Shown here one piece after another: positions 1 to 20,464 of a DNA stretch of 32,000 bases; positions within the stretch are counted from its first letter, which is position 1, and each line of letters begins with the position of its first letter. Made by a program: the position numbers and the translations under genes. Below the pieces are notes generated by a model. The model saw only the letters and a program-made list of their open reading frames with translations. It was not told the origin of the DNA and did no database searches. Source of the DNA: Flavobacteriaceae bacterium (lineage in GTDB: Bacteria; Bacteroidota; Bacteroidia; Flavobacteriales; Flavobacteriaceae); NCBI GenBank assembly GCA_965224465.1, contig OZ245049.1, forward strand, positions 4,740,001 through 4,772,000, in the 5' to 3' direction.

Positions 1-102
1 TTTAGAATACCTGAAAACTATACTCCAGAACAAAAAGATTATAAATATGATGAATTTAAAAATACAAACCTCAGTGTTGAAACCTTATCTAGTACTCGTT
101 AA
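1..102 (+). CDS. 3' end of a gene that starts left of the window (33 codons + stop); possibly the C-terminus of a toxin paired with the lipoprotein at 47..1045
   Basis: Frame 1 is open from base 1 to TAA at 100-102 (FRIPENYTPEQKDYKYDEFKNTNLSVETLSSTR*). It overlaps the start of the next ORF, the same coupled layout as the other toxin/lipoprotein pairs in 1068..5484. No domain is recognisable from 33 residues. Confidence 0.3.
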   Translation, partial: FRIPENYTPEQKDYKYDEFKNTNLSVETLSSTR

Positions 103-1045
103 AATAAGTATACTTGCTTTTTGTTTAATTTCGTGTAAAAATGAGAAAAAAGAAAATCTAATTTCTTCTCAGAATAGCATAAATAAAACTTACAAAGGAA
201 GAAAAGTTATTAAAGAAGTTATGTTTAAATATAATAAACAAAACTTAAAATCTATATTTTTATTAAAAGAGGAAGGAGAACTCGGTACTAAAGGTTTTAC
301 TAAAGAGTTAGAAGTTTTAATTTTAAATAAAGATATTTTAATTGATAGCTTTTCTTTTAAAAATAAAAGTATCCTTTGTGACTTAAAGATTTTAATTGAT
401 GAAATTAAGGTTATAAATGAGGATAATCATCAAATTTTATTCTTTCCTATTATACATAGCTGTGATGGTGAAGAACCTAAATTGCTAAAAATAAATATTT
501 GGGATGATAAGAAATCAAGTTATGAAATAGGTATTCCTGTATATTTTCAAAATTCAGAAAGTAAAAGAGAGTTTGCAGAAAGTGTTTCTTTAATTAATTT
601 TAAATCAAATCAAATTAGAAATAACGCATATATTACAATAGGTAAAGAGACAAAAATTAATCTATTTAAAATTAAGGGTGAAAAATCTAATAAGATAGAT
701 AGAGAAAATCCTAAATGTTTTACAGAATCTGATATTTCTAAAATCAAAGATTTTTTTGCTGTACCAACAAAAGATAATTTTTTTAATAATTTTGATAAAA
801 AAGAAAATATAAGTGTAGAGTATATAGTTAGTTACTTGAAGAGTACAGATTGTTTAAATCAAAATATATCTATAACTAAAATTAATGATTGTACAGATGA
901 ATTGAAATGTGAGATCTATTGTTCTTTCAATTTAACACAAGATGAAAAAGATGACGGAGAGCTAAGTGAGGAAACTTTATATATTTATTTTAATAAAATT
1001 AATGGCAAAATCTACTTAAATAAATTAGAGTCTGAAGGTAGATAA
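47..1045 (+). CDS. Lipoprotein of unknown function, candidate immunity protein
   Basis: 332-aa ORF with an N-terminal hydrophobic stretch ending in a lipobox-like LISC followed by KNEKKE. Its position directly after an upstream gene end matches the other cassettes. The true start may be an internal GTG/TTG near 74-77. Confidence 0.6.
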   Translation: MMNLKIQTSVLKPYLVLVKISILAFCLISCKNEKKENLISSQNSINKTYKGRKVIKEVMFKYNKQNLKSIFLLKEEGELGTKGFTKELEVLILNKDILIDSFSFKNKSILCDLKILIDEIKVINEDNHQILFFPIIHSCDGEEPKLLKINIWDDKKSSYEIGIPVYFQNSESKREFAESVSLINFKSNQIRNNAYITIGKETKINLFKIKGEKSNKIDRENPKCFTESDISKIKDFFAVPTKDNFFNNFDKKENISVEYIVSYLKSTDCLNQNISITKINDCTDELKCEIYCSFNLTQDEKDDGELSEETLYIYFNKINGKIYLNKLESEGR

Positions 1046-1067
1046 GTGTTTTTCCACCTCTTCTGAT

Positions 1068-2555
1068 GTGAGCGTCACGCTCGTAACAACTCCAACACCA
1101 AAAACTAAAGTATATGAAAAAGAACCAAAAGAAACCGATAATGATATTGTGACTACAGAAGCGTTTTCTGTACGAAAAGTAACAGCTACTAAGGATAAAG
1201 ATGGTACAGAATGGTTACAAGTAAAAGGTAAAAGAAAACATAAAGATAAACAAGGTTGGATAAAATTAAGTGAACTAACAGAGATAAACCCATATGAATG
1301 GCAAATCCTTAATGATACCGGATCACAATACTTTTATCAATTTGGAGATTCTGTAGAAAATACCGAGCCTCATAATTTTGTTACTACATTATGGGAGCAA
1401 TTAAAGCAATACGATAGCGATAATGATAAAGTGTTAAGCGTATATGAGTTACAAAAAGCAAGAAGTTCAGAAGCAGGAGCTAAAATACTAAGTAAATTTA
1501 TATGTAAGCATTTTAGTGAGTGGGATACTAATAGCAAAATAAGAGATTTTAAAACTGAGGTAGAAAATATTTATAAAAAAGGAATAGAGCAAGAAACAGT
1601 TAAAGCTGAGATAACAGCTTTAGAAGAGGCAAGAGATAATAAAATAGCACTCTTAGAAGATAAAATTAATAACCTTTGTTTTTGGGATAAAATCCAAACA
1701 GGAGATCTTGTACCTACCAGTAAACGTAAACAAGATTATATTGACAAACATAAACCTGTGCGTACAAGTATGTTACCGAAAGGCACAAGTAAAGAAGAGA
1801 TACGTTTAGCAAAAGAGTTTGATGACTTAGAGAAAGAAAGAACACCTAGAAAATTCCCTACGGATTCTAATGTGTATCACTTCCATCCTATTGCATTTGT
1901 TGAGCAGATGAAGATGATATGTGCTACTACACCACCTTGGATGGAGGTGGCTTTAGCAGAAGCTAAAAAAGCTAAGTTTATTAGAGAAACTTTGAGTCCA
2001 ACATCTGAAATGGCTAATAAATACCATACTTATGTAGGGATGCCTAAAGCTACTGGTTCTACAGCTTGGTGTGCCTCTTTTGTTAATTGGTGTTTAAACG
2101 AATCTGGTCAAAAAAGTGTAAAATCAGCGGGTTCACAAAGTATACTTTGGAATGAAGGAAAACTATTTAAGCGTATTAATGAACCGGTATATGGTTGTAT
2201 TGTTTTATTAACTAATTATGTTAAAAGTAATGGTAAACAAACTTCTAATGGACACGTTACTTTTTTATACGGAATTGATTCTAACGATAATTTAATATGC
2301 TTAGGAGGAAATCAACGTGATACAATAAAGTTTTCTAGATATAAAAAAAAAGGAGTTTTAGCTACTTTTGAACAATATCAGAAGTCTGAAAAAGGTGTTG
2401 TTTTTGTGGAGCAGAAATTTAATGGTTTTTTCTTACCTATGGATTATTTTACATCTAATAGTAAGGAACCAGATGTTGTAAACATGAAAAAATTAAATAA
2501 TGAACTGGCTGGTAAAGCTGTAAAATCTGATGGGAAAAATGAAAAAACTACTTAG
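1068..2555 (+). CDS. Peptidoglycan amidase toxin; the C-terminal domain resembles the TIGR02594 / CHAP (NlpC/P60 superfamily) family
   Basis: The C-terminal ~200 aa carry the family pattern PPWMEVALAEAKK...TAWCASFVNWCLNESG (Cys nucleophile)...YGCIVLL...NGHVTFLYG (His)...LGGNQRDTIKFS. The junction NVYHFHPIAFVEQMKMI precedes it. There is no signal peptide. The ORF starts at GTG and its frame is open back to 1029, so it may itself be a 5'-truncated module. Confidence 0.75.
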   Translation: MSVTLVTTPTPKTKVYEKEPKETDNDIVTTEAFSVRKVTATKDKDGTEWLQVKGKRKHKDKQGWIKLSELTEINPYEWQILNDTGSQYFYQFGDSVENTEPHNFVTTLWEQLKQYDSDNDKVLSVYELQKARSSEAGAKILSKFICKHFSEWDTNSKIRDFKTEVENIYKKGIEQETVKAEITALEEARDNKIALLEDKINNLCFWDKIQTGDLVPTSKRKQDYIDKHKPVRTSMLPKGTSKEEIRLAKEFDDLEKERTPRKFPTDSNVYHFHPIAFVEQMKMICATTPPWMEVALAEAKKAKFIRETLSPTSEMANKYHTYVGMPKATGSTAWCASFVNWCLNESGQKSVKSAGSQSILWNEGKLFKRINEPVYGCIVLLTNYVKSNGKQTSNGHVTFLYGIDSNDNLICLGGNQRDTIKFSRYKKKGVLATFEQYQKSEKGVVFVEQKFNGFFLPMDYFTSNSKEPDVVNMKKLNNELAGKAVKSDGKNEKTT

Positions 2556-3021
2556 TATAATCTTATTAACACTACTCTTAATAGCTTGTAAAAAAGAAGC
2601 TAAACCAACTAAAAGTAATATCTCTAATAGAAATAAAATTATTATTAAAAGTGATACTTTAAAAAGAATAAAGACCATTAATGATAAAGAAGTAGAAAAA
2701 CAGACCATTGTAGTTTTTTTAAAAAGGTTACAACTTGCTGTTAAAAGTAATAACATTGAGATAATAAATAAATCTATAAAGTTTCCTTTAGAATTTAGCA
2801 GTGGTGGAGAATCTATTTTTTACAATAACTATCAAGAGATTAAAGAAGATGGAAGCAATGAAGAATTTTCAAAAATATTAGAAGCTAAATTTATTGAGAA
2901 AAACAATTCTTTCTATAAAGTTAGATATCAAGATCCACAAAGTATAGATTATTTTATTACTTTTTATTTTATTAAAAGTATTGATGGTTTTAAATTAAAG
3001 AGTTTTTCAGAACCTTATTAA
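2530..3021 (+). CDS. Lipoprotein, candidate immunity protein for the 1068..2555 amidase
   Basis: 163-aa ORF overlapping the toxin stop by 26 nt (17 nt if the second ATG at 2539 is used). Signal peptide with lipobox LIAC then KKEAK. Confidence 0.6.
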   Translation: MGKMKKLLSIILLTLLLIACKKEAKPTKSNISNRNKIIIKSDTLKRIKTINDKEVEKQTIVVFLKRLQLAVKSNNIEIINKSIKFPLEFSSGGESIFYNNYQEIKEDGSNEEFSKILEAKFIEKNNSFYKVRYQDPQSIDYFITFYFIKSIDGFKLKSFSEPY

Positions 3022-3347
3022 AAAAACTAAACGGTGAATTAATTAAAAATATTGAAGATGCTTTTGTGGGAGCTGTAATAGTTTTCTCGCATTCCCATGT
3101 AGCTTTTATTGCTGGACAATCTAAAGACAAAAAAAGTTTAATTTATTTAGGAGGTAACCAATCAGATGGAGCTACAAATGAAGGGCCGGGAAAAAGAACA
3201 ATTTGTACAAATCCAAAATCTAAATCAGGTTTTAATACAAAGTTTTGGTTAGTAAAACCAAAAAATCATCCTTTAAATTCAAATAAAGAATTACCTGTAA
3301 TATCTTCAGGTGGAAAAGAATTAGGTTATAAAGAAACACATAACTAA
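2994..3347 (+). pseudogene. 5'-truncated remnant of a second TIGR02594-type amidase (C-terminal ~110 aa only, catalytic Cys region missing)
   Basis: The frame is open from 2994 with no ATG. FVGAVIVFSHSHVAFIAGQSKDKKSLIYLGGNQSDG aligns colinearly with VYGCIVLL...GHVTFLYGIDSNDNLICLGGNQRDT of the 1068..2555 protein. The WCASFVNWC segment is absent. Confidence 0.6.
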
Positions 3348-3349
3348 TT

Positions 3350-4189
3350 ATGAAAACATATAATAATATTAGATTACTATTAATTGAAATAATTTTCTTA
3401 ACAATTATTTCTTGTAAGAATAATAAAGAAACCCCTAAAAACAATCATGTTTCAATATATTTAAAAACAAAAACGGAAGCAAAAAAACAAGACAGTACAA
3501 AAAAACAAATATTTGATGACAAAGAATTAAAAAATATTTTAAAACAACAATTAGCGAAGGGTAAATCTGCTTTGTATGATGATTCTTTTGATGTTGTGAC
3601 CTATAAATATAGTCAGAAGGATTTAGATGTCATTCTACCTTTTTTGAAGGAAAATCTAATCGGTTATGATGTTCCTTCAAATATAAAGTTTAAAAAAATA
3701 ATCAAACAGATATTTGGTAGAACTGTTGATTTTGCAAGTAATTCAAATTATTTATATGTGAATTTTAATAATAAATTAGATAGAGCTAAAAAGTTTTATA
3801 GAAATGATAATTCAATTCAAATAAACCCTTTCGCTATATTTATTATTAAAAAGGGTAATTTTATAACACCTCTTTATTCTGTAGCAGAGATTTTAAATTA
3901 CAAAAATATATATCCAGAAATATCTAAATTTGAAAATAAAGTTAAAATCAATCAAAAAAATAAAAATGGTGAATCAATAAAGGTATTTAAATGGAGTGAA
4001 GACAAAGAAAATAATATTTCAAATAATTTAAAAACATTTGTAGCTAGAAATAAATATCTTTTTAATAACGATAAAAGCCAATTAGATTGGCTACTAAAAA
4101 ACGACGAAGAGTTTATGGAAGCGTTGATAAGGGTTTATAATTATTCTAAAGACCAAAAACATAAAGATTGGTATGCTAAAAGAAATTAA
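3350..4189 (+). CDS. Lipoprotein, candidate immunity protein retained next to the amidase remnant
   Basis: 279-aa ORF starting 2 nt after the remnant stop. Signal peptide with lipobox IISC then KNNKE. Confidence 0.6.
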   Translation: MKTYNNIRLLLIEIIFLTIISCKNNKETPKNNHVSIYLKTKTEAKKQDSTKKQIFDDKELKNILKQQLAKGKSALYDDSFDVVTYKYSQKDLDVILPFLKENLIGYDVPSNIKFKKIIKQIFGRTVDFASNSNYLYVNFNNKLDRAKKFYRNDNSIQINPFAIFIIKKGNFITPLYSVAEILNYKNIYPEISKFENKVKINQKNKNGESIKVFKWSEDKENNISNNLKTFVARNKYLFNNDKSQLDWLLKNDEEFMEALIRVYNYSKDQKHKDWYAKRN

Positions 4190-4205
4190 ATACAAATACG
4201 AACAC

Positions 4206-4332
4206 ATTGATAAACATAAATATGGACACATCAGTATGCCTCCTAAAGGATTGAGTTAAAAGACAATTTTCAACTAATTCTAATGTGTATCATTTTCACC
4301 CGATTGCATTTGTGGAACAGATGAAGATGATT
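4206..4332 (+). repeat. Decayed copy of the conserved pre-toxin region of 1068..2555 (homologous to 1740..1919)
   Basis: IDKHKYGHISMPPKGLS (4206..4256) matches IDKHKPVRTSMLPKGTS (1740..1790). 57 nt of the long gene are replaced by 4 nt (taaa), which gives a stop and a frameshift. RQFSTNSNVYHFHPIAFVEQMKMI (4261..4332) then matches RKFPTDSNVYHFHPIAFVEQMKMI (1848..1919). Confidence 0.8.
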
Positions 4333-4929
4333 GCTGGGGAACTTGATATTAAATCTGGTATTGAGTGGTTAGACTCTATTGCTATAACAATGCAAGAAAG
4401 AAAAGAAGGTGATAATTTTAAAGTAAAATATAAAAATGATGTTAATAGTGATACTAGAACTGCAATTACAGACAAAGGGGAAGAATCTTTAGACTGTTCA
4501 GAACTTGTTTGTAGGTATTTACAAAAAATCGGTTGGAGTAAAGAAGTTAAATGGCTTACAACAGCTTTGCTTTATTCATATGCACAGAAACATCCTGATA
4601 AATTAAGAATTAATGATGACGAAAATTACAAACCTATAAAAGGAGATATTTTTCTTTGGAAAAGCAATTCTGGCAGAATGGGACATACAGGCGTTGTTGT
4701 TGCTTATGACCAAAATACAGATACCGTTACTACAATAGAAGCCATTACAGGAAATACTTTAGCAAATGAAAATAGTAAAGGTTTTCAACTAATTAATAAA
4801 TCATCTTACTATAGGTTTAATTTTGGAGGTACTATTAAATGCGTTTGGAAAAGAAAAGAATACCACTTAATAGGTCATAAAAAAGTAGGCTATACAAATT
4901 GTAGGTTTTACACTCCGTTAAAAAAATAA
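4285..4929 (+). CDS. Orphan NlpC/P60-type cell-wall hydrolase toxin module
   Basis: Begins (GTG) inside the conserved junction YHFHPIAFVEQMKMI. It then has the NlpC/P60 signature LDCSELVCRYL (Cys) and GDIFLWKSNSGRMGHTGVVVAY (His). No signal peptide; decayed conserved sequence lies upstream. Confidence 0.65.
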   Translation: MYHFHPIAFVEQMKMIAGELDIKSGIEWLDSIAITMQERKEGDNFKVKYKNDVNSDTRTAITDKGEESLDCSELVCRYLQKIGWSKEVKWLTTALLYSYAQKHPDKLRINDDENYKPIKGDIFLWKSNSGRMGHTGVVVAYDQNTDTVTTIEAITGNTLANENSKGFQLINKSSYYRFNFGGTIKCVWKRKEYHLIGHKKVGYTNCRFYTPLKK

Positions 4930-4932
4930 TAT

Positions 4933-5484
4933 ATGTATAAAAAATTTTTATTTATTTTATTTGTTTCTGTTATAACTTTCTCTTGTAAAAAGAAACAAAA
5001 AAACTTTATCAATAAGAAATTAGAAATTCCCATTAATAAAGTTCAAGTTAAAAAAAGTTTATTAGATACAATTTCGACAAGTTTAAAAAAACTTAATTAT
5101 GAACTACATCCTTATTCTGGATTTCCTTTGTTTTTTAATAATAAAAACAAAGACTATTATTATGCAATAACAGTAATCTCCAATAACAACGAAATAAAAG
5201 ACAATTGGGTATTTGATGAGCTATCTTTTAATGAGAAAGTTGTAACAGAAACAAAACAATATATTTTAAAAAACGAAAAATCATATAACCTTGTTTTATT
5301 ATTAATTAAAGATAATATTTATGAACAAGATGGTGTTTTTAGTCCTAGTGAAAATTTCAATTATGAATTATACTTAAAGAAAAATAATGTTTGGGTTTTA
5401 AAACAAAAATCTTTTTTCGATCAAGATTTCTTTGTATTCTTAGACTCTATATTTCTTAAGGAAGTTGAGCGTATTTTAAAATAA
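4933..5484 (+). CDS. Lipoprotein, candidate immunity protein for the NlpC/P60 module
   Basis: 183-aa ORF starting 3 nt after the toxin stop. Signal peptide with lipobox TFSC then KKKQK. Confidence 0.6.
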   Translation: MYKKFLFILFVSVITFSCKKKQKNFINKKLEIPINKVQVKKSLLDTISTSLKKLNYELHPYSGFPLFFNNKNKDYYYAITVISNNNEIKDNWVFDELSFNEKVVTETKQYILKNEKSYNLVLLLIKDNIYEQDGVFSPSENFNYELYLKKNNVWVLKQKSFFDQDFFVFLDSIFLKEVERILK

Positions 5485-5558: not shown

Positions 5559-5596
5559 AAAACGAATTGTACACATTTTAAAAACGAATTGTACAC
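5559..5596. repeat. Two direct copies of aaaacgaattgtacac spaced 22 bp start to start
   Basis: Exact 16-mers at 5559..5574 and 5581..5596, in the intergenic region between the toxin array and the prophage-like block. The function is unknown; a protein-binding site is possible. Confidence 0.7.
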
Positions 5597-5611
5597 TATT
5601 TTTTTAAATTT

Positions 5612-5644
5612 AAAAGCCGCTTAAACAGAGTTTAAACGGCTTTT
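5612..5644. terminator. Bidirectional rho-independent terminator between convergent genes
   Basis: Hairpin aaaagccgcttaaac / gtttaaacggctttt with loop agag and one mismatch. An A-run lies on one side and a T-run on the other. It sits between the 3' ends of 4933..5484 (+) and 5650..6501 (-). Confidence 0.7.
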
Positions 5645-5649
5645 AAGTA

Positions 5650-6501
5650 CTATGATACCGTGCTTGTCCAGCCTTTATGAAGCATTATATCCGTATAACT
5701 GGTATTGGATGTGGTGTTAGCCTTCATTTCCTTCTTTTCTGCATTATCAAAGGGATTATTATCAAATGTACTGTGGCTTATCCACTCACATAGCTCTATA
5801 ATTGAGGATTTATTAGAAGTAAAGTAAAAGTAGTTTGTACCATCCAATACCGTTAGCACATCTAAGTAATCCTTTAATTTCCAATAATTTTTGTAAGTGC
5901 TACAGTCTGTGCTTAGGTATGGTGGATCTACTAGGAATACTACCGACTTCTCACTTTTATACTTAGCAAATAAATCTTTATAATCCATTTTAACCACTTT
6001 TAAACCATTCAAATAGCCATCAGCATTATAATTACTCTTTCGTATCTTATTGTAAAGTGTTGCCTTTGAAAGTCCTTTAAAATCGGTCACAGTGTTCATT
6101 GCGAATAGTAACGAGCTAGAGATTGTTTGGTAATCTACAAAACCAGTGTTTTTTTCAAATAATTCCAATACTTCAGATCTGAATGGTTCTGTTATTTTTA
6201 TTCCTCGAGGAGCATTTTTTAAAACAATTCTTAGTTGCTCTAGGTAGGTGTTAGTAGTTGGAATTGCTTCAATACGCTCCCTGAAATTATCGTAATCGTT
6301 ATAAATTACTGTAGCCTCTTGGTAATAATCTTTTACAGTTCTTGAAAGTAATCCACTACCACCAAACAAGTCTACATAAATAGCATTCTTGGGATATTTC
6401 TCAAGCGCTTGTTTAAAGGCTGTTAGGTAGTTACGTTTTTGCCCCATAAAAGGCAATGGAGACACCTTAAAAATTTTCTTAATAATTGGTGTTTTTATCA
6501 T
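5650..6501 (-). CDS. N6-adenine DNA methyltransferase, Dam-like (D12 class), with no adjacent restriction gene
   Basis: SAM-binding motif VDLFGGSGLLS near the N-terminus and catalytic DPPY (VFLVDPPYLSTD) at ~residue 192. This is the motif order and spacing of Dam/D12 enzymes. Confidence 0.85.
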   Translation of the reverse strand: MIKTPIIKKIFKVSPLPFMGQKRNYLTAFKQALEKYPKNAIYVDLFGGSGLLSRTVKDYYQEATVIYNDYDNFRERIEAIPTTNTYLEQLRIVLKNAPRGIKITEPFRSEVLELFEKNTGFVDYQTISSSLLFAMNTVTDFKGLSKATLYNKIRKSNYNADGYLNGLKVVKMDYKDLFAKYKSEKSVVFLVDPPYLSTDCSTYKNYWKLKDYLDVLTVLDGTNYFYFTSNKSSIIELCEWISHSTFDNNPFDNAEKKEMKANTTSNTSYTDIMLHKGWTSTVS

Positions 6502-6545
6502 TCTTATATTAATATATTTGTCATCTGACCACTAAAAAACAAAAA

Positions 6546-6594
6546 AACCACACAAGCAACCAAAGGATTTTGTCCTTCAGTAGCCTGTGTGGTT
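6546..6594 (-). terminator. Intrinsic terminator after the tail-collar gene, embedded in a larger set of nested inverted repeats
   Basis: On the - strand, stem aaccacaca(gg)/(ct)tgtgtggtt (9 perfect bp plus 1) is followed by tttttttgtttttt. It lies between the stop of 6672..7535 and the start of 5650..6501. Confidence 0.55.
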
Positions 6595-6671
6595 CTTGTT
6601 TAAAAAGTGGTCAGATATTTTTTAAAACTGAAGGACTTTTTTTAATTCATTCCCCCAATGAATTTAGTTTT

Positions 6672-7535
6672 CTATCCTACATAAATAATGTACGCAACAA
6701 CATAATAAGGAGGTCTATTCTCATGATCTTCATTCCCTCCTTTGTTTATAGTACTTAGAGATACAGATTGCTGAGGCGAATAAGTTGTCTCAGAAACACT
6801 TAAGGCATTAATGTTATTATTATTTGTAAGTACATTCTGAGATGATGATCCTCCTTTTGCATAAACTGTATGAGGTAGCGAATGTTTATGAGGCGGAATA
6901 ATTATATTACCATTATGGTTATGAGAAGGCATTTGTGATTCACTTAATTTAACTTTTTCAAACCCTCCAGTCCTATTTATATAAGTACTAATATCACTAT
7001 AATCTGGAGATGAAGAATCAAAGCCAACAATAAACCTACCTGATAAATTAGGTGTTCCGTTAGATCCATTACACAATTTCCATCCATTAGGAATGGTATT
7101 AATTGATCCAGACCACATTATTATTCCTCCAATAGGTGTGCTATGATTTTGTAATTTTGAAATCCGTTTTAATTCCGAAAAACTAAACGTTATCACTCCT
7201 CCAGTACCGCATTTTGCCTCTCTAATAATATGTGCTGGCTTGGTGTCTAAATTACCATCCAAGTCTAAATCTTCATTATAAACAGCAGCTACATTAGTTT
7301 CAATAATAGTTATTGTAGTTGCTTCTACGGATGCTTTAAACGGAAATATTTCGCCATTATAAATAATTGTTCCTGCGGACACATTCCCTGCAGTAACAAC
7401 AACACCTTCCAAAATCACACTTTTACCTATTGCTTTAGATAATCCAATGATTCCATACTGTAGTGACTTTTGAAGGAATTTGAATCCCTCTATGGTAAGC
7501 CCAAAACCACCTGATTTTAAATCTAAATAATCCAT
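6672..7535 (-). CDS. Phage tail fibre protein with a C-terminal tail-collar (MdpB-like) domain
   Basis: Typical collar-domain motifs: IPNGWKLCNGSNGTPNLSGRFIVGF, GGFEKVKLSESQMPSHNH, and C-terminal HENRPPYYVVAYIIY. Confidence 0.85.
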   Translation of the reverse strand: MDYLDLKSGGFGLTIEGFKFLQKSLQYGIIGLSKAIGKSVILEGVVVTAGNVSAGTIIYNGEIFPFKASVEATTITIIETNVAAVYNEDLDLDGNLDTKPAHIIREAKCGTGGVITFSFSELKRISKLQNHSTPIGGIIMWSGSINTIPNGWKLCNGSNGTPNLSGRFIVGFDSSSPDYSDISTYINRTGGFEKVKLSESQMPSHNHNGNIIIPPHKHSLPHTVYAKGGSSSQNVLTNNNNINALSVSETTYSPQQSVSLSTINKGGNEDHENRPPYYVVAYIIYVG

Positions 7536-8041
7536 TGTATGTTATATGTTTTACTTGCTAATTTGTAATAATCAATTAATGCAGCCACTCCACTTACATA
7601 TGCTGTTTTTGCAATTTCATCTACTGGTAATAGATCTGAAGGAGCCAATACTTCAAAGTCGGATCCAACCCCCATAAAATCGTTGTCTGAATATACAAAC
7701 ACTGGCTGTTGTTCTTGTTCTGAATAAATAAAGGCTGGTTTGTTTTCTGCCTCAGAATAGATCCATAATGGTTCTAAGAATCTTCCATCTGTTATTTTAA
7801 ACCTTCGCTGTTCCTTGTCAAATATATCATTTAAGGCAGCCTGTAAATAACATACTTGACTATTATGTGTTACCTCGTAAATAGACACAAATCGAAAGTT
7901 TAAAAACTGCCCATACAACTCTTTAAATGGTGTTATAAGAGCGTTTAACCACTCAATCTGAATACGCTTACGTAGCTCTATTGGTAAATTTAGTACCAGG
8001 AGTTTTTTAAAGTTGATAATATAAATACGACTATTGACCAC
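7523..8041 (-). CDS. Phage structural-module protein, function unknown
   Basis: 172-aa ORF overlapping both neighbours by 11-13 nt (translational coupling) within the tail gene block. No motif recognised. Confidence 0.5.
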   Translation of the reverse strand: MVNSRIYIINFKKLLVLNLPIELRKRIQIEWLNALITPFKELYGQFLNFRFVSIYEVTHNSQVCYLQAALNDIFDKEQRRFKITDGRFLEPLWIYSEAENKPAFIYSEQEQQPVFVYSDNDFMGVGSDFEVLAPSDLLPVDEIAKTAYVSGVAALIDYYKLASKTYNIQWII

Positions 8042-8915
8042 GAGCTATCCAATTTATAGTTGTTGCACCTTCATCCATTCGCATATATCCAGCATCTGAA
8101 ATGTAGGTTTCATTTATAGTTGCCCATTCTAAGTTGCCATATTTTGTCTCAGCTGACTTAATAATTGGCAATTTTACACCTTCTATTAATTGTAAATGAT
8201 CCGTTAGTTGGGTTAACACCAACTCACCGTTAAAATCAAGATTATACAAAAAGCTTTTAATTGCTTCCTGTACTGGAGTATTAGCAGTTCCATCCAATCG
8301 AGCACCTGCAGCACTCAATATTTGTGGATTGTAATGAATATCCAATACTAACTTTAAACTATCATTTACTCTGGAGGTGGGAATAATCTTAGTACCCGCA
8401 TCCCCCGTTTGTTTAATATAGTCTTCAAATGCCAACATTTCAGCCGGTTCTAAAGGGACATACTCATTATTAACCTCCTTTGCCAGTTTTAATTCCAAAT
8501 GCCCCCGACCATTCACTATTTTACGAATAACAGCTACATGTTTTATTATTTTAGCAGCATCTATTTGAGCAATTGTTAGGGTTGAATTATTATACTTATC
8601 CGTCTCCGTAACTAAAGCATGTCCAAATTGGAATGCCAATGCGAGTTCTTCATACCAAGTGAAATTATGAATCTTGTTTTTTTTAATTAAATCATCCATT
8701 TCCTTTTTATGGATATCAAATATTGATTCCAATGTCCAAACTACCACAGCGACAACCCAAATCCATAAACGCCAAATAGCCACTCTCGAGGTACTTGTGA
8801 GCCCAGCAATTGTATTGCGTTCATTTGTTGTTAGCACCTCTAATGTATCTAACTCCGAAGCCTTTTTCTTAGCTCTTAATATTGATTCCTGTATGTCGTT
8901 GAGTGTTCTTGCCAT
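8031..8915 (-). CDS. Phage tail/baseplate-associated protein (assignment tentative)
   Basis: 294-aa ORF in the tail block, coupled to its neighbours. I cannot verify baseplate-J-like similarity without a search, so the call rests on context only. Confidence 0.4.
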   Translation of the reverse strand: MARTLNDIQESILRAKKKASELDTLEVLTTNERNTIAGLTSTSRVAIWRLWIWVVAVVVWTLESIFDIHKKEMDDLIKKNKIHNFTWYEELALAFQFGHALVTETDKYNNSTLTIAQIDAAKIIKHVAVIRKIVNGRGHLELKLAKEVNNEYVPLEPAEMLAFEDYIKQTGDAGTKIIPTSRVNDSLKLVLDIHYNPQILSAAGARLDGTANTPVQEAIKSFLYNLDFNGELVLTQLTDHLQLIEGVKLPIIKSAETKYGNLEWATINETYISDAGYMRMDEGATTINWIARGQ

Positions 8916-8917
8916 CT

Positions 8918-9199
8918 TTATTGTTTAGGAATCCAACCTATTTGTATTTGATTTAATAATTCAAATGCTTTGCCTATAGCTTGATTGGCTACTTTTAAAG
9001 CTTCATTCACTTGTGAGGCATCTACGGATAATTGCACGCCAAACTCTTTTTCTAGTTCCTGTCGTTTTTTATGAAATTCCTCCATTTTTTTTACTAATTC
9101 CTCTTGAGCTTCTTTTTCCTCATTTTTTGCTTTTTGAACTATCTTAAACGCTTCAAATTCCTTTAAATCTTCTTTGTTGATTGTGACTGGATTACTCAT
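8918..9199 (-). CDS. Small coiled-coil phage protein
   Basis: 93-aa ORF rich in E/K heptad-like sequence (KAKNEEKEAQEELVKKMEEFHKKRQELEKEF), lying between tail genes. Confidence 0.5.
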   Translation of the reverse strand: MSNPVTINKEDLKEFEAFKIVQKAKNEEKEAQEELVKKMEEFHKKRQELEKEFGVQLSVDASQVNEALKVANQAIGKAFELLNQIQIGWIPKQ

Positions 9200-9212
9200 T
9201 ATTTATATTTAT

Positions 9213-9719
9213 TTAGCATCCTGTTGATGCTGTTACTGTATCTGATAATATTATTGCGGTTATTACTCCATTTACGATATGATAAATTGTAAATGTATTT
9301 GTAGATCCTGAAGAACCTCCATAAAAATAAGTTCCTGTAAATGTTATTTTATAATATGGGGACATATATCCATAGAGTTGTTCACCTACAGTAATAGGAG
9401 CTGTCGAATATCTTTTACAAGTAAATCCCGAAATGTTGATTGATTCCTTACTGTAAAGGCATTTTAAATCTTCATCTGAAAACTGTGATATGTTCACACC
9501 TCCTATTGAATGTTGTAAATTCACATCCATTGTTGGCTTAACATGCTGATACCCTCTAAAACTTAAAAAATTATTACCGTCTCCTACTTTATAAGTTGGG
9601 TCATAAACACCTATAGCATCTATAAATATTTGTATAGAAGAACGCCCCAATGTATTTGTATCCCCATATATCTCTTGTAAAATATCCTCTATAGTTATAG
9701 TGTTGGTCGTTGTTATCAT
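9213..9719 (-). CDS. Phage protein downstream of the tail fibre (possible fibre accessory/assembly protein)
   Basis: 168-aa ORF whose ATG overlaps the tail-fibre stop by 4 nt. The function is inferred from position only. Confidence 0.45.
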   Translation of the reverse strand: MITTTNTITIEDILQEIYGDTNTLGRSSIQIFIDAIGVYDPTYKVGDGNNFLSFRGYQHVKPTMDVNLQHSIGGVNISQFSDEDLKCLYSKESINISGFTCKRYSTAPITVGEQLYGYMSPYYKITFTGTYFYGGSSGSTNTFTIYHIVNGVITAIILSDTVTASTGC

Positions 9720-11562
9720 TTTATGCCTAGTTGTTGAGTTAAAAGTGCTACTTGATACTTTAAATATGCGATTTCCTCTGAATGTAAATCTATAATTGCA
9801 ACTTTATATGTGTCCTTTTCAGAACCTGATACGAATGTTTTTAAATCATTATCTAACAACATATCCTGTGCTATTGGTGAAACATGACGCATTTTAGTAT
9901 CTCCTTCTATGAAATTAAAAGAAGCATATCTCGTATTTAATTTTTTTGGTGATAAATAAATGATATTCTTTTTTGCTCTACGGTCTGAGGTTCCTTGCCA
10001 TGATTGGCTGAAAACAGTCCCCTTTGATGTTACATCTCCTGAGAATGTAGCTCCATCTCTATGCAATCTAAGCCTCTCCTGCATGTTATTAAACCCGTTC
10101 CATGCATTAAATGAAATATCTGCATAATTAGATGGTGTTGCAATATTTGGCAACTCAAAAGAAATGTTAGCTACTGGTAAGCCCTGATTCCTGTTCCATG
10201 CTCGGAGTTTGAATAAAACATCACCACTTGCTGCTCCTATCCCTTTACCTGTTAACTCATTGTCTAATGTAACGTTCCCTAAAAATGCAGCATTACCACT
10301 AAAGTCAATACTTGCCTTTACTTGGTCCGAATTATTTAAAAATTGCAATGTACTACCAGATGTTTTAATATTGTAAGAATTTCCTGAGGGGTCTTTTATT
10401 GCTAATAAATTAGGTATTATTATAGCTGCTGTTATTTTTCCTGAGAACACCCCATTATTAGCGTCAAAATCTCCAGTAGAGAATTTGCCTGTTACCCTAT
10501 TTATATTAAAACCTTGCCCAATATATGCTCCTGTATTTGAAAATCTATTTACAACAAAATCATCACCTGCACCTCCTAAAATCATATCCCACTTCTTAAT
10601 AGGACCTCCCGACCTTTCTGTAAAAGTTAATCCTGAACTGCCTCCTACGTAAATACCTTTAGACGTAACGTAATTTGCCACAAAATCAACGTCTGATTTA
10701 TTAAAATTCCCTGAGTGATAATACTTATTAGATAATAAAATACCGCCTTCAGAAATACTTCCTCCAGTCTTAATATTCACACTACCAAAATCTCCTCCAG
10801 TTCTTAGCAAAGAATTTGCGGTGGTATCAGATTTTATAGTATCTAAATTAATTATTGCAGAAACGCTTATAAAATTAACTTTAGCCTGTGATGCATCCGT
10901 AAAGGCATTAGTATCAGCATTGCTTTCATATTTAATTTTTATTGATGCAGCGGTTTCAGCAGTGCTTTTTCCTTGCTGTAAAATCCACTCATTATCCGTA
11001 TTGTCCCATATATAAGATTCTACATCTGAACCAATACCCGCATCTACATAGGCATAATTACCTTCTATACCCACAGGGATAGTTGTTCTTAATGCCGTAA
11101 TATTTGGAAACTGCCCTTTAAAATGAGGTGCTTCTAAACCTGCTAATTTTGTTTTTTCGGCATCCGTAAACCCATTGGTATTAGGTTCTGCCTCATATAA
11201 AGATTTTATTTCATTTCCTGTTTGATCTGCGGTGGCTAATTTCTCAATACTTTGTAATTTCAATATTAAATCGTTTGTAAAATTATTTTCAGACAAGCCT
11301 TGTCCGACAATTTTATCAACCTTTAAAATATTATATGCATCAAATTCAGCCTGTAAACCATCTATCATAGACATCGGATGGGATTGAGGATGTATATAAT
11401 TTGACAAGTTTTTTAGCTTTGTAAGTAAAGTCCCTGTAAAATTATTTTCAGAGAGTCCTTTCCCATCAATTTTATCAACTTTATTATCAAGTGTGTTTTG
11501 TAAATTGGTTATATAATTAATGTTTTGATTGGGGGGTAATGTTGGTACAGCAATCTCACGTG
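9716..11562 (-). pseudogene. Tail fibre with a C-terminal peptidase-S74 intramolecular chaperone domain, 5'-truncated by IS21
   Basis: S74 signature TSDRRAKKNIIYLS...HVSPIAQDM...KVAIIDLHSEEIAYLKYQVALL. Fibre repeats are present (KVDKI.G.GLSENNFT twice; NGFTDAEKTKL; NAFTDASQAKV). The reading frame stays open upstream of the listed TTG (11407) right up to the IS21 end at 11563, with no start codon. Confidence 0.8.
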
Positions 11563-12686
11563 GATATTCCGGAGCAAGCTGCCCCCTCTACCGGGACTCA
11601 AAAAAGATGTAATTACATACTGACGTTCTGACGTATGTTGACCCCCTCTAAAATTATCGGATTAATATTCCGGAGCATATTGACCCCTCTAATTATTAAG
11701 AGAGCTCATTTTTGTAACGGAGCATGTTGATCCCCTAAATAATTTTGGTTTTACTTAGTGGTAATTAATCACTAAATGAGAATAGATGGCAGGTAAATCA
11801 ACACGTATGAGTCTCGTAAAACAATTATTAAGAATGCACCACAATGGCATTGGTATTAAAACCATTGCAAGAACACTTTGTGTGAGTAAAAACACCGTTA
11901 AAAGCTATATTTTAAAAGTCAAAGACAGCGGCATTCCATTCGAAAATTTATTAAAACTAGAAGATCCTTTATTAGAAAAAGCATTGCTCGCTGGAAACCC
12001 AGCCTATAAAGATCAACGCTATGAAGTTTTAAAGGATAAGTTGGGCTATTATGCCAAAGAACTCACAAAGATTGGTGTAAACCGTGTGGTTCTGTGGGAT
12101 GAGTACAAAGCAGAGTTCACCCCCAACTATTATAGTTATAGTCAATTTTGTGATCATTTACGCCAATATCGTCGCAGTAGTAAACCATCGATGGTTTTAG
12201 ATCATCATCCTGGAGACAAACTTTATATTGATTACGCAGGAAAAAAGTTGTCTTATATTGACATTGATACAGGGGAAATAATAGATGTTCAGGTATTTGT
12301 AGCCTGCCTTCCTTATTCTGATTATTGCTTTGCTATAGCTGTTCCAAGTCAGAAAACAGATGATTTTATTATGGCATTACAATGCTGTTTAAAAGATATA
12401 GGAGGCGTACCACAAACACTAGTCCCCGACAATCTTAAAGCTGCCATAGTAAAGGCTAGCAAATTATGAGCCAACAGTAAATAAAGTGCTTGAAGATTTT
12501 GCGAACCATTACAATACCACTGTAACCCCTGCAAGATCTAGAAAACCACAAGACAAAGCATTGGTTGAAAACCAAGTAAAGCTAATCTACAGTAGGGTTT
12601 ATGCTAAGTTACGCAATCAGCAATTTTTATCATTATCATCACTTAATACAGCCATAAAAACATTGGTTAAAGCTCATAATCAAACT

Positions 12687-13810
12687 TAAATTCAAGTAGT
12701 AAATGCAACTTCTTAGATTTGAGAGTTTCTAAGGTTTATTTTTCAAAACAGAAAGAGAGTCACCTCTCCTTCATGTTTTGATGGAATAGTTACCTTACGC
12801 CCTCAAGTCTCTGAAAAAGAAGTAGTATGGCACATTTAACCAAAGAACAAAGATACACAATTACCTGTATGTTATCACAGGGGTATTCTAAGTCCAAAAT
12901 AGCCTTGGCTATAGGGAAACATAAAAGCACTATAAGTAGAGAATGCAAACGTAATTGCGATGCTCGTAGCGGCTCCTATGAATACGAATTAGCACATAGA
13001 AAGTGGAAGGATAGACATAAGAAAAAGCGAAAGCACATTAGGTTTACTGAGAAGATAAGAAGCGAGGTTGAAAAGCTGTTACGTGATGATTATAGTCCAG
13101 AACAAGTGGTTGGAATACTTACTAAGCAAGGAAAAGAAGTTGTTTCAGTAGAACGTATTTATCAGCATATCTGGCAAGATAAGAAGCATAAAGGCACACT
13201 CTATACTCATTTAAGAAGACAAGGAAGGAAGTACAGGAAACGAGGGGCATTCAAGGACTCACGTGGTATTATTAAAGATCGAATTAGTATTGAAAAACGA
13301 CCAGATATAGTGGAGAAAAGAGAACGTTTTGGAGATTTAGAAGTGGATTTAATAATTGGAAAAAATCATCATCAAGCCATTCTTACAATCAATGACAGGG
13401 CTTCTGGGATGCTAAAGATGAAAAAAATAGCATCTAAAGAATCTTCTGTTGTAACAGCTGCTATTAATGAGCTTTTAGAAGATTGGATACCGTATATAAA
13501 CACTATAACAGCTGATAACGGAAAAGAGTTTGCAGGACATAAAAAAGTAGCTGAATTTTTAGGAATCGATTATTATTTTGCACATCCTTACCATTCATGG
13601 GAAAGAGGATCTAATGAAAATTTAAATGGGCTTATTCGGCAATATTTCCCTAAAGGAAGTGACTTTTCGATATTAACTAAGCAGATGATAAAACAGGTGG
13701 AAGGAAAATTAAATAGAAGGCCTAGGAAAAGGTTTTCATATCAAAACCCTATATTTGTAATGAATCAATTATTGTTTAACCAAAAAGTTGCGTTTATAAG
13801 TTGAATTCAG
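12687..13810 (+). mobile_element. IS30-family insertion sequence nested inside istA
   Basis: Imperfect ~25-bp inverted repeats (taaattcaagtagtaaatgcaactt / aagttgcgtttataagttgaattcag). The element is flanked by direct repeats caaact at 12681..12686 and 13811..13816. Boundaries are +/-1 bp. Confidence 0.8.
12827..13804 (+). CDS. IS30-family DDE transposase
   Basis: 325-aa ORF with an N-terminal HTH region (LTKEQRYTI...GYSKSKIALAIGKHKSTISRE) and a C-terminal DDE core (GDLEVDLI...ITADNGKEF...SWERGSNENLNGLIRQYFPKG), the IS30 pattern. Confidence 0.85.
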   Translation: MAHLTKEQRYTITCMLSQGYSKSKIALAIGKHKSTISRECKRNCDARSGSYEYELAHRKWKDRHKKKRKHIRFTEKIRSEVEKLLRDDYSPEQVVGILTKQGKEVVSVERIYQHIWQDKKHKGTLYTHLRRQGRKYRKRGAFKDSRGIIKDRISIEKRPDIVEKRERFGDLEVDLIIGKNHHQAILTINDRASGMLKMKKIASKESSVVTAAINELLEDWIPYINTITADNGKEFAGHKKVAEFLGIDYYFAHPYHSWERGSNENLNGLIRQYFPKGSDFSILTKQMIKQVEGKLNRRPRKRFSYQNPIFVMNQLLFNQKVAFIS

Positions 13811-14500
13811 CAAACTAGAATGCAACGCAAGGATTACTCTAGAGAAGAAAAATTTATAGCTGATGAGCAACATACTTTAGCGGCTTTGCCAACTACTGAT
13901 TTTGAAGTAAAATATTATAAAAGCTTAAAAGTAGCTCATAATAATCACATCTATTTAGCTTCAGACAAGCATTATTACAGCGTTCCTTACATTCATATAG
14001 GAAAACAGGTTAGGGTGATTTACACACGTAGCTTAGTTCGTGTTTATTACGATAATGAGCAGATAGCTGTACATCCAAGAGGACTGAAAAAATCAGGATA
14101 TACTACAACAAGTGCACATTTATGTTCAGAACATCAGTATTATAAAAAACGAAGCCCAACCTATTATTTACAAAAAGCATATCTTCATTCTGAGGAGTTG
14201 TACCTATTTCTAAATGGATTATTTAAGCAGGACAAGTACCCTGAACAGCTTTATAGAACCTGTGATGGCATTTTAAACTTGTCTAAAAAAACAGATCCAA
14301 CAGAATTTATAAAAGCCGTCAAAATAGCCCAAGAAAACAATAATTACTCCTATGGTTTTTTAAAACGAATACTAGAAAATAAGATGACAGAAAATACAGA
14401 ATCTGCATCTTCAAAACCACTATCTGATCATAAGAATATCAGAGGAAAAAAACACTATAAATAAGCGTTTAAATGTATAATTACTAAATTTTAAATAAAG

Positions 14501-15220
14501 ATGAACAACATTGAAAACAAGTTTAATCAACTACGACTGCTAGGAATGTCTACCCAATGGGAGGCCTTAAAAGAAACACGTCAGCATCATGATTTATCAC
14601 TACCAGAGGGCTTAGAAATATTGCTACAAGCTGAACAATTAGATCGAGAAAATAGGCGTTTTGAACGCTTAAAACGAAGTGCTAAGTTTAGATATAGTGC
14701 CAGTATAGAGGAGTTAAACTTTGAAACCTCTAGAGGCTTAAATAAATCACAAGTGACCGAGCTTGCAACGGGAAACTACATTAAAAACGGAGAGTCAATA
14801 CTTCTAACAGGCTCCACTGGATGTGGTAAAAGCTTTACAGCATCGGCATTGGGACACAGAGCATGTTCTCAAGGAGTAAAGGTGTTATACTATAATCTTC
14901 AAAAACTACTCATCATTATTAAAATGGCACGTATTGATGGAAGTGTTTTTAAGTTATTGGAGAAAATATCAAAATCTGGATTATTGATACTCGACGATTT
15001 TGGAATAACTCATTTAAATAACCAGCAACAAATGGATTTAATGGAACTAATTGAAGATCGACACGGAAAATCATCCACCATAATAGCGAGTCAATTACCC
15101 GTGGAAAACTGGTATGAAATCATCGGAGAAGCAACCATAGCAGACGCCATTTTGGATCGATTAGTACACCGCTCTCACCGAATAGAATTAAAAGGAAAAA
15201 GTCTAAGAAAAAAACTGTAA
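14501..15220 (+). CDS. istB: IS21 helper ATPase IstB
   Basis: Walker A LTGSTGCGKSF and Walker B LLILDDFG, plus the typical C-terminus ADAILDRLVHRSHRIELKGKSLR. Confidence 0.9.
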   Translation: MNNIENKFNQLRLLGMSTQWEALKETRQHHDLSLPEGLEILLQAEQLDRENRRFERLKRSAKFRYSASIEELNFETSRGLNKSQVTELATGNYIKNGESILLTGSTGCGKSFTASALGHRACSQGVKVLYYNLQKLLIIIKMARIDGSVFKLLEKISKSGLLILDDFGITHLNNQQQMDLMELIEDRHGKSSTIIASQLPVENWYEIIGEATIADAILDRLVHRSHRIELKGKSLRKKL

Positions 15221-15304
15221 CTTTGTCAGTATCTCATTTTTAAGACCAAAATCTACAGAGGGGTCAACATCACCGGAATGAGGGGTCAACATCATCGGAA
15301 TATC

Positions 15305-18301: not shown

Positions 18302-18407
18302 AAAACAAAGAATTGTAACTCTTATTAATTAGAAAATAATATGATAACTATTAAGAATTGTTAGTGTCTTTAATAAACGTGATGTTGATGCCAGTATTGC
18401 TTGGGGA

Positions 18408-19686: not shown

Positions 19687-19744
19687 GTATCCGTCCGACC
19701 ATCCCCATATTTTTTAGTGGAAAAATAGCTTCTATTTTTGACGC

Positions 19745-20053: not shown

Positions 20054-20054
20054 T

Positions 20055-20396: not shown

Positions 20397-20464
20397 TGTC
20401 TTTTTACAGGTAAAAAACCTAATAAAACCAGGCTGTTCATGTATATTTTTCGTATATTTAATGT

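Follow-up and report, generated by a model that had tools for sequence, protein, structure and literature searches.

Why would a marine flavobacterium carry, one behind the other, four lipoprotein genes separated by more or less complete pieces of cell-wall hydrolase genes? The question is raised by the first 5,484 nucleotides (nt) of a 32,000-nt stretch from the genome of a Flavobacteriaceae bacterium (GenBank assembly GCA_965224465.1, contig OZ245049.1, positions 4,740,001 to 4,772,000, forward strand), which is the whole stretch of DNA that was analysed and is called the window below. An initial annotation had described positions 1-5484 as an array of peptidoglycan-hydrolase modules, each followed by a lipoprotein gene, and had read them as toxin-immunity cassettes of the polymorphic-toxin kind. 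The description holds and this reading is supported: there is a sharp domain boundary, the hydrolase C-terminal domains (C-domains) behind it are varied and co-vary with the lipoproteins, pairs recur across genomes, and relatives are linked to PAAR, VgrG and TssD genes. In our judgement the region is very likely the distal part of a TseP-family effector locus of a type VI secretion system (T6SS), with displaced toxin/immunity cassettes, in a marine member of the Flavobacteriaceae.

Architecture of the array

According to the list of open reading frames (ORFs) and the sequence itself, the + strand of 1-5484 holds the 3' end of an effector gene, four lipoprotein genes with a lipobox and three displaced toxin pieces, all eight at the positions that had been given initially. 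They fall into four units, each consisting of a toxin or its remnant and the lipoprotein gene behind it. We call the conserved N-terminal part of the full-length relatives the scaffold, the motif YHFHPIAF behind it the junction, and modules that lack the beginning of the scaffold orphans.

1..102, + strand: end of the upstream effector gene (last 33 codons; the window begins within the gene), tail FRIPENYTPEQKDYKYDEFKNTNLSVETLSSTR*
47..1045, + strand: lipoprotein 1, 332 aa, lipobox LISC followed by KNEKK, 56-nt overlap with the upstream effector gene
1068..2555, + strand: orphan module 1 (unit 2), 5'-truncated effector (495 aa, GTG start)
1413..1448, + strand: EF-hand-type loop DSDNDKVLSVYE within the retained N-domain of unit 2
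1848..1918, + strand: junction repeat copy 1, encoding YHFHPIAF at nt 1875-1898
1926..2555, + strand: C-domain of unit 2, a TIGR02594/CHAP-type amidase, Cys335 (nt 2070-2072), His396 (nt 2253-2255)
2530..3021, + strand: lipoprotein 2, 163 aa, LIAC followed by KKEAK, 26-nt overlap with the unit 2 toxin
3027..3347, + strand: toxin remnant (unit 3), C-terminal half of a second TIGR02594-type amidase (listed ORF 3066-3347, frame 2994-3347)
3350..4189, + strand: lipoprotein 3, 279 aa, IISC followed by KNNKE
4190..4260, + strand: decayed relic of a scaffold 3' end, from DNA alignment and translation
4261..4929, + strand: orphan module 3 (unit 4), junction repeat copy 2 and intact CHAP C-domain
4933..5484, + strand: lipoprotein 4, 183 aa, TFSC followed by KKKQK
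5608..5648, no strand: hairpin closing the array, with T/A-run flanks, between the array and a convergent methyltransferase gene

P0002, a homolog of 765 aa that ends in a CHAP domain and on whose contig (L041) a PAAR gene lies upstream, has a C-terminal tail with 50% identity (E=8e-6) to the translated gene end at nt 1-102. Lipoprotein 1, which gave no Pfam or NCBIfam match and whose gene has a G+C content of 22.6%, is the immunity candidate for the C-domain of the effector that ends at nt 102.

Unit 2 aligns in tblastn to residues ~517-1012 of the full-length effector of locus L003 with 57% identity and keeps the distal N-domain (286 aa of scaffold), the junction and an intact amidase C-domain. 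Its EF-hand loop gave weak matches to the Pfam families EF-hand_7 and EF-hand_6. The C-domain had been labelled a TIGR02594/CHAP-like amidase, and it scores 83.4 bits on the TIGR02594 profile (cut-off 70.55) and 24.4 bits on CHAP, slightly below the cut-off of that profile (26), with Cys335 and His396 present; it is 68-80% identical to the C-domains of the full-length effectors in L001, L002, L003 and L006. AlphaFold models this domain with a mean predicted local distance difference test score (pLDDT) of 82.5. The model of the whole 495-aa ORF is mediocre (mean pLDDT 74, predicted template modelling score 0.50) and contains an SH3-like beta region, an EF-hand helix-loop-helix (residues 103-133) and long helices, followed at the junction by a short strand (269-272) and a helix (274-285) before the C-domain, where the pLDDT is 54-62. 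A second copy of the module, P0019 (511 aa), is encoded on the same 5.24-Mb contig; the two are 96% identical, both are 5'-truncated, and in both the sequence sets in just past the M23-like core, near residue 500-515 in the numbering of the full-length protein. Relative to P0019, the copy in the window has a 7-aa deletion in a conserved stretch.

Unit 3 had been taken for an amidase remnant without its catalytic cysteine, in agreement with what we find: of the two active-site residues only the His (nt 3096-3098) is left, junction and scaffold are gone, and the alignment to the TIGR02594 profile covers positions 73-115 only, with 25.6 bits (below the cut-off). Two longer effector ORFs end in sequence similar to the remnant, at L008 11054-11368 (72% identity) and at L025 9792-10094 (68%), and lipoprotein 3 is a candidate for an orphan immunity gene that survived its toxin. 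In unit 4 the scaffold relic has lost 53 nt relative to 1720-1850, its frame is broken, and it contains an in-frame stop at 4252-4254. The ORF behind it (4285-4929, 214 aa, GTG start) carries Cys71 (nt 4495-4497) and His134 (nt 4684-4686) and scores 36.6 bits on CHAP (cut-off 26). It had been called NlpC/P60; because CHAP belongs to the same clan, the label was close enough. Units 2 and 4 are thus predicted to be catalytically intact cysteine amidases. The states of decay differ from unit to unit: unit 2 is truncated with an intact catalytic domain, unit 3 is a toxin remnant, and unit 4 is a broken relic with an intact domain. All four lipoprotein ORFs are intact.

The coupling between toxin and partner is as tight as had been proposed, with spacings of -56, -26, +2 and +3 nt in units 1-4. 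Homology to the scaffold begins in each case right after the stop of the preceding partner (nt ~1062 for unit 2, ~3027 for unit 3 and ~4190 for unit 4), and the G+C content alternates along 47-5484, from 21-23% in the lipoprotein genes to 31-32% in the toxin pieces. By sequence pattern, all four partners have the hydrophobic leader ending in a lipobox cysteine that had been ascribed to them, with a lysine directly after it; outside the leader they are as dissimilar to each other as had been stated (every pairwise E > 0.4). In Bacteroidota an acidic stretch after this cysteine is the signal for export of a lipoprotein to the cell surface. No acidic signal of this kind follows the lipobox cysteine in any of the four, and the lysine-rich, non-acidic sequence found there fits lipoproteins that would face the periplasm.

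The hairpin at 5608-5648 has a folding energy of -18.2 kcal/mol (z = -5.3), and none of 200 shuffled sequences folds equally well. Since terminator-like sites on the + strand were not found inside 1-5484, and since this hairpin closes the array, co-transcription of the array is plausible. A sigma-70 promoter scan returned fewer sites than in shuffled sequences and is uninformative, the sigma-70 model being unsuited to Bacteroidota. Between the lipoprotein 4 gene and the hairpin, at 5559-5601, there are two adjacent 21-nt copies of AAAACGAATTGTACAC(A/T)(T/A)TTT.

A junction motif between scaffold and exchangeable C-domains

The junction motif that the initial annotation had noticed is real. Positions 1848-1918 and 4261-4331 form a 71-nt direct repeat with 83% identity, both copies of which encode NVYHFHPIAFVEQMKMI. 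In database relatives of the 495-aa ORF, similarity extends over its first ~285 residues, up to YHFHPIAFVEQMK, and is lost entirely beyond that point; these relatives end in M23 peptidase, GH108, CHAP or undefined domains. A motif scan of one genome per species, in which the closest match was 63% identical, yielded 40 loci from Aquimarina, Tenacibaculum, Tamlana, Olleya, Cellulophaga, Saccharicrinis, Labilibaculum, Cytophagales, Saprospiraceae and two Pseudomonas; the nearest relatives are Aquimarina and Tenacibaculum. Together with the window these 41 sequences contain 67 junction modules. A search of the literature for the motif string returned nothing relevant.

Across the 40 loci the motif is located ~650-1100 residues into a protein of ~900-1500 aa. 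Five of its residues (H, H, P, A and F) do not vary among 61 modules, and past the motif the mean identity is 11%. YHFHPIAF is thus the boundary between a conserved scaffold and an exchangeable toxin domain. The domains beyond it are CHAP (20), M23 (5), GH19 (5), PG_binding_1 (3) and YkuD (2), besides rarer ones (a VgrG3-like C-domain, DUF5675, Amidase_5/6) and some that are unassigned, 10 Pfam families overall; lysozyme-like C-domains are seen in some relatives only. Judged by its family, every assigned C-domain is predicted to act on peptidoglycan.

At loci with a visible main gene, 5'-truncated copies of this kind are present downstream of it (L001, L003, L004, L007, L011 and L019). These orphans keep 250-500 nt of the 3' end of the scaffold, with 88-94% nucleotide identity and ending at the junction. 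Such lengths and identities are ample for homologous recombination, which suggests that orphan modules are potential recombination substrates for the scaffold gene.

Pairing of toxins and lipoproteins across genomes

Do the lipoproteins belong to the toxins that precede them? An ORF with a strict lipobox follows 46 of the 59 testable modules (those with an intact C-domain and enough downstream sequence, 29 full-length and 30 orphans), compared with 132 of the 573 ORFs that form the background in the same loci, which are themselves rich in such genes. Among 56 modules, homologous downstream lipoproteins go with homologous C-domains in 49 of 60 pairs (odds ratio 39, Fisher p ~1e-35), pairs that are phylogenetically non-independent.

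The individual units of the window recur elsewhere in the same combination. Toxin 2 and lipoprotein 2 are found as a pair in six loci (L001-L006), with lipoprotein homologs that are 32-42% identical, and lipoprotein 2 is the candidate cognate immunity partner of the TIGR02594 C-domain. In L008, a Saprospiraceae locus in which the effector matching the unit 3 remnant is a PAAR-linked full-length gene, the ORF right behind the intact toxin (11396-12199) shares 56% identity with lipoprotein 3, and the counterpart of this ORF in L025 shares 43%. The unit 4 toxin occurs with 80-81% identity and the same junction on four metagenome contigs (L042-L045), where proteins 68-69% identical to lipoprotein 4 directly follow the matching toxin; lipoprotein 4 has no similarity to the partner in L007. 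We regard lipoprotein 4 as the candidate cognate immunity partner of the unit 4 CHAP C-domain. Taken as a whole, toxin and lipoprotein co-vary as cognate toxin and immunity genes do.

Full-length relatives are T6SS-linked members of the TseP family

A PAAR gene directly precedes the full-length gene in 28 related Bacteroidota loci, with a gap within ~360 nt and usually below 100 nt; VgrG precedes PAAR in 16 loci, and TssD, the Hcp of the Bacteroidota type, is within reach in 7. In Tenacibaculum geojense (L003) the order is TssE, TssF and two TssD genes (PF17642, 175 and 163 bits), followed by an unannotated ORF with a lipoprotein gene, VgrG, PAAR and a 1012-aa effector. The C-domain of this effector is 71% identical to that of unit 2, and a homolog of lipoprotein 2 is encoded next to it. 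Further downstream lie orphans with an M23 remnant, a second M23 remnant and a YkuD domain starting at the junction, each with its own lipoprotein gene.

The full-length relatives have no signal peptide. Their N-terminus is invariant in the pattern ...GFYPIGRLNxWHGGIHIE...AIADGRIIAYR...YSLYMHL...HLEVFTDD, and the Zn-site residues H51, H55, H128 and H356 (L003 numbering) are invariant in 25 of them. Pfam matches to M23 (in 7 of the 25), SH3_3 and EF-hand are weak, as are the calmodulin matches of the family profile. These signatures characterise the conserved scaffold: besides its M23-like Zn site it has an SH3 domain, an EF-hand and a helical region.

The same scaffold is known from Proteobacteria. 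TseP of Aeromonas dhakensis, described in 2025 (Wang et al., eLife; PMC11893102), is a T6SS amidase-lysozyme effector. Residues 1-603 form its N-domain, a Zn-dependent amidase superimposed on 3SLU; this domain binds VgrG2, and T6SS assembly requires it. Residues 604-845 form the C-domain, which has lysozyme activity. An EF-hand is reported for the protein, its homologs include AHA_1849 and PSPTO_5204, and both activities are inhibited by the immunity protein TsiP. TseP-C alone also binds VgrG2 and is secreted, though weakly, and GC differences between the domains have been reported (PMC11893102). Within the family, a physical interaction with the spike is known only for TseP and VgrG2. A profile built from 25 scaffolds matches proteins of Aeromonas, Pseudomonas, Plesiomonas and others at ~200 bits, with C-termini annotated as GH73, GH19, pesticin-like, GH104/GH24 or M23. 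The A. dhakensis homolog (P0133) carries WHGGIH, YMHLL, HQVHLEVF, an EF-hand and a variant of the junction, VWHFSPIG, at residue 604. Since the published split is between residues 603 and 604, the motif marks the published domain boundary. The scaffold part of unit 2 itself matches P0133 both around the EF-hand (E=9e-7) and at the junction (E=0.008), and the scaffolds of the other relatives have EF-hand matches as well. By scaffold homology, the pieces in the window are therefore assigned to the TseP family.

Do they make up a complete member? The M23-like Zn-amidase core is absent from every ORF in the window, the orphans starting past it, which speaks against full membership; the window accordingly holds parts of TseP-family members and no complete one. 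The lysozyme C-domain is likewise absent from the window, where the C-domains are TIGR02594/CHAP cysteine amidases.

TseP and the proteins described here have in common a homologous N-domain scaffold with the HxxxH, YMHL and HLEVF motifs, an EF-hand and a helical region, the lack of a signal peptide, the proximity of spike genes, an immunity gene directly downstream, and a peptidoglycan hydrolase C-domain that begins exactly at the junction motif. On the other hand, TseP is described as a fixed amidase-lysozyme chimera that belongs to the T6SS-i of Proteobacteria and is carried by VgrG2, whereas the relatives of the window belong to the T6SS-iii of Bacteroidota and have a PAAR gene directly upstream. 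The C-domains also differ (CHAP/TIGR02594 here; M23, YkuD and GH19 in relatives), and orphan C-domain/immunity modules are present. The authors of the TseP paper regard the protein as the product of one fusion, and the words polymorphic, orphan and Bacteroid- do not occur in their text (PMC11893102). The initial annotation had not recognised the combination of array and junction motif as one already described. The combination is partly described, in Proteobacteria as TseP and with no orphan arrays (PMC11893102).

In Pseudomonas brassicacearum the order is VgrG, an accessory gene, a 918-aa homolog with IYHFHPIAF and a lysozyme-like end, and a small secreted protein. The proteobacterial relatives at this locus (L040, 5324-11677) and at L039 have an extra NlpC/P60-like domain ahead of the M23-like scaffold, which gives three potential cell-wall hydrolase domains in one VgrG-linked protein.

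A model for the locus and its alternatives

We infer the mode of delivery, the neutralisation, the history of displacement and the roles of the orphans as follows. An effector of ~1000 aa without a signal peptide would be loaded onto the VgrG/PAAR spike by its N-terminal scaffold, and the exchangeable peptidoglycan hydrolase after YHFHPIAF would be fired into the periplasm of a neighbour, where it would cut the cell wall; sister cells would be protected by the lipoprotein of the next gene, which would face the periplasm. In this scheme the current effector would be the product of the gene that ends at nt 102, with lipoprotein 1 as its immunity protein, and units 2-4 would be older cassettes, displaced downstream by successive recombination of C-domain and immunity gene through the conserved scaffold sequence. 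The orphans may serve as kept immunity against relatives that still fire those toxins, and as a stock of C-domains that could be recombined back onto the scaffold. Judged by the features seen in the sequence, the region appears to be a polymorphic toxin locus with orphan cassettes, in which three of the four defining features are present and the fourth, a full-length main gene, would lie beyond the window.

Several observations weigh against this model. The 32-kb window contains no T6SS gene (TssD, TssE/F, VgrG or PAAR) and no full-length effector was found in it, and none of the best 120 of the 253 matches to the scaffold profile comes from the source 5.24-Mb contig. Lipoprotein 1 has no homolog among the 45 loci compared, and none of the lipoproteins gave a structural or sequence match to a characterised immunity protein. 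For the hydrolases, sequence searches of the C-domains of units 2 and 4 against solved structures found nothing, and Foldseek against the PDB returned for the modelled unit 2 C-domain only non-significant CHAP matches (LysGH15 and LysK, E ~0.04), a result consistent with a CHAP fold. The orphan ORFs of units 2 and 4 both start at GTG and are putative, the 60 pairs of the co-variation count are not phylogenetically independent, and the surroundings are full of insertion sequence (IS) elements and include a prophage remnant.

Could the whole locus be a fossil, in which the effector gene ending at nt 102 is inactivated as well and the lipoproteins are kept as a pure immunity islet? The lack of a full-length scaffold protein from the source contig among those 120 profile matches would agree with such a history, as would the 5' truncation of both genomic copies of the unit 2 module, the presence of at least five IS elements and a truncated prophage within 30 kb, and four intact lipoprotein ORFs next to decaying toxins; arrays of immunity genes only are, moreover, well known from Vibrio cholerae (PMC5361080) and Bacteroidales (PMC10470768). 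However, the profile search used a word filter and scored 8000 candidates, and because 120 of 253 matches were listed the absence of a full-length protein is weak evidence; an intact main gene in the source genome is putative. In addition, the 33 codons at 1-102 are in frame and encode a tail typical of the family, and their overlap with the lipoprotein gene is just that of intact pairs. We consider an entirely inactivated locus rather unlikely.

A locus that is more active than our model assumes would be a multi-effector operon, in which units 2 and 4 are translated from their GTG codons, perhaps by coupling to the lipoprotein gene ahead of each, and leave the cell independently by secretion, so that several hydrolases are fired together. 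TseP-C can by itself bind VgrG2 and be weakly secreted (PMC11893102), the catalytic domains of both units are intact, the array has no internal terminator-like site on the + strand and a single strong hairpin at its end, and other genomes have annotated short proteins that begin within the scaffold (P0004, P0008 and P0011). Against this, unit 4 has only 11 in-frame codons before the junction and stands behind a frame-broken relic, and unit 2 lacks ~515 N-terminal residues including the Zn site, in a part of the protein that restores T6SS assembly in Aeromonas (PMC11893102). The 7-aa deletion of unit 2 lies in a conserved stretch, unit 3 is clearly dead, and there are no ATG starts. Joint firing of the units therefore seems improbable to us. 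The displaced-cassette model has also to be compared with a prophage lysis origin, in which the hydrolases would be endolysins or virion-associated lysins and the lipoproteins spanin-like or superinfection-exclusion partners. A prophage remnant with a methyltransferase and tail fibres does start 166 nt past the array, on the opposite strand, and TIGR02594 and CHAP domains are found in phage baseplate lysozymes and endolysins. Yet its genes converge on the array with the terminator hairpin in between, neither scaffold nor junction occurs in a set of 2.9 million viral contigs, and phage genomes match only residues 279-460, the catalytic domain, with at most 35% identity. The 28 related loci place the gene after PAAR/VgrG, and the related arrays L001-L007 are without phage genes. 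Holin-like ORFs are missing, and the partners are large lipoproteins of 163-332 aa, far above the size of an o-spanin and different for each toxin. The initial annotation had itself named prophage endolysins with holin or spanin partners as the finding that would overturn its proposal; the evidence from viral contigs, phage genomes and spike genes refutes them in practice, and we give this origin almost no chance.

Two further candidates were rejected. Cargo of an extracellular contractile injection system does not agree with relatives that have TssD, TssE, TssF, VgrG and PAAR, the components of a T6SS, and housekeeping cell-wall enzymes do not fit the truncated copies, the junction repeats and the linkage to spike genes.

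Comparison with other known systems

Close parallels to the layout are known from other systems. T6SS auxiliary clusters of Vibrio cholerae contain immunity arrays that arose through successive displacement (Kirchberger et al. 2017, PMC5361080). An effector-immunity pair is at the head and older immunity genes with 3' remnants of effectors are behind it, as here. The present array differs in the effector family and T6SS class, in that two of the three displaced toxin domains are predicted to be enzymatically intact, and in that a conserved peptide motif within a single gene serves as the swap point.

The Rhs and CdiA-CT systems likewise have a large conserved N-terminal region and a variable C-terminal toxin, divided by an invariant demarcation motif, and a cognate immunity gene next to the toxin; their downstream orphans also keep conserved sequence that is usable for homologous recombination. 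Their demarcation motifs are PxxxxDPxGL or VENN, and orphan toxin/immunity modules are known (Zhang et al. 2012, Poole et al. 2011). Rhs/YD repeats, two-partner secretion and filamentous haemagglutinin repeats are not found here; and because all the toxins here target peptidoglycan, the immunity proteins are exported lipoproteins and not cytoplasmic as in Rhs/CdiA-CT.

Within the same phylum, gut Bacteroidales have orphan-immunity clusters for acquired interbacterial defence (AID), which are mentioned in PMC10470768. They resemble the array in having immunity genes without functional cognate toxins, which are thought to protect against T6SS effectors of neighbours. AID clusters reportedly sit on mobile elements or next to recombinases, detached from effector genes (Ross et al. 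2019). The present array is, in contrast, contiguous with the 3' end of an effector gene and has kept toxin domains and junction repeats.

The catalytic family is also found elsewhere as a T6SS toxin domain: in Stenotrophomonas, VgrG-linked LysM-TIGR02594 proteins are putative T6SS effectors (PMC13055248, PMC13340143). These share the peptidoglycan-directed domain of the NlpC/P60-CHAP clan and differ in their LysM-containing carrier and the lack of a YHFHPIAF junction. Unit 2 as a query also matched proteins of the LysM and TIGR02594 type (P0005, P0007 and P0009).

The surrounding region

Beyond the closing hairpin, a prophage remnant occupies 5650-11407 on the - strand, converging on the array and ending where IS sequence begins at 11786; the region is unusually rich in IS elements.

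5650-6501, - strand: DNA methyltransferase (prophage remnant)
6672-7535, - strand: tail-collar fibre (prophage remnant)
8031-8915, - strand: conserved phage protein (prophage remnant)
9716-11407, - strand: tail fibre of 563 aa with an S74 chaperone end (prophage remnant)
15203-15535, - strand: IS66 transposase fragment
16011-17444, - strand: DDE (IS4-like) transposase
30829-31731, - strand: IS1595/ISXO2-like transposase

The segment 11786-15220 is a nested insertion, in which an IS21-type istA gene is split (11786-12469 and 13820-14464) by an IS30-like transposase gene (12827-13804) and istB (14501-15220) is intact. Three ORFs with predicted membrane segments at 17606-19717 and 22381-22773 are homologous to a pair that follows the orphan array of L003 (17640-18760), which suggests that synteny with a T6SS effector island may be conserved. 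The third of these ORFs (19265-19717) is interrupted by a complete IS66 element (19745-22150), its remainder being found at 22381-22773; at 22008-22404 there is a 199-nt tandem duplication (96% identity) of the 3' end of the IS66 element, including the transposase stop and a hairpin.

Two further regions may carry effectors. At 23180-26639 (- strand), a protein of 864 aa combines LysM with a GH19/endolysin-like C-domain, TseP-like effectors in L029, L035 and L022 have C-domains similar to its last ~300 residues, and the gene of a 293-aa lipoprotein follows with a 17-nt overlap; this looks like another peptidoglycan effector/immunity pair with a different carrier. At 26803-29737 (- strand), a 579-aa alpha/beta-hydrolase has a GHSHGG motif and weak DUF915/PGAP1 matches. 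Behind it are genes for two small, related multi-pass membrane proteins (27165-27527 and 26803-27102), with a further one (29279-29737) ahead of it, an arrangement that resembles a lipase-type effector with membrane immunity proteins.

Implications

Could the N-domain of TseP be a delivery scaffold across phyla, used by T6SS-i and T6SS-iii alike? At least ten classes of peptidoglycan hydrolase would then be exchanged at YHFHPIAF, and orphan C-domains such as those of units 2 and 4 might be secretable by themselves, like TseP-C, so that the array would form a live arsenal that can be re-assorted and not debris. We put this forward tentatively, as a wider claim about which we are more doubtful than confident. 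If it applied, YHFHPIAF could be a structural cap, a processing site at which the C-domain is freed in the target, or an anchor for cassette exchange.

No concept is overturned, and the architecture is as the polymorphic-toxin model predicts. The arrangement itself is known; modestly new is the extension at the level of the family, namely to T6SS-iii, to polymorphic C-domains and to a defined swap motif. The TseP family, so far a proteobacterial one, now also includes effectors linked to the Bacteroidota-type T6SS in marine Flavobacteriia, Cytophagia and Bacteroidia. Within it, one scaffold is combined with many cell-wall hydrolases, exchanged at a defined motif, and arrays of orphan toxin and immunity genes are left behind. 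The junction may thereby provide a precise fusion point for engineering T6SS-delivered lysins, together with a list of hydrolase-inhibitor lipoprotein pairs, and arrays such as this one would be a natural record of effector turnover in surface-associated marine bacteria.

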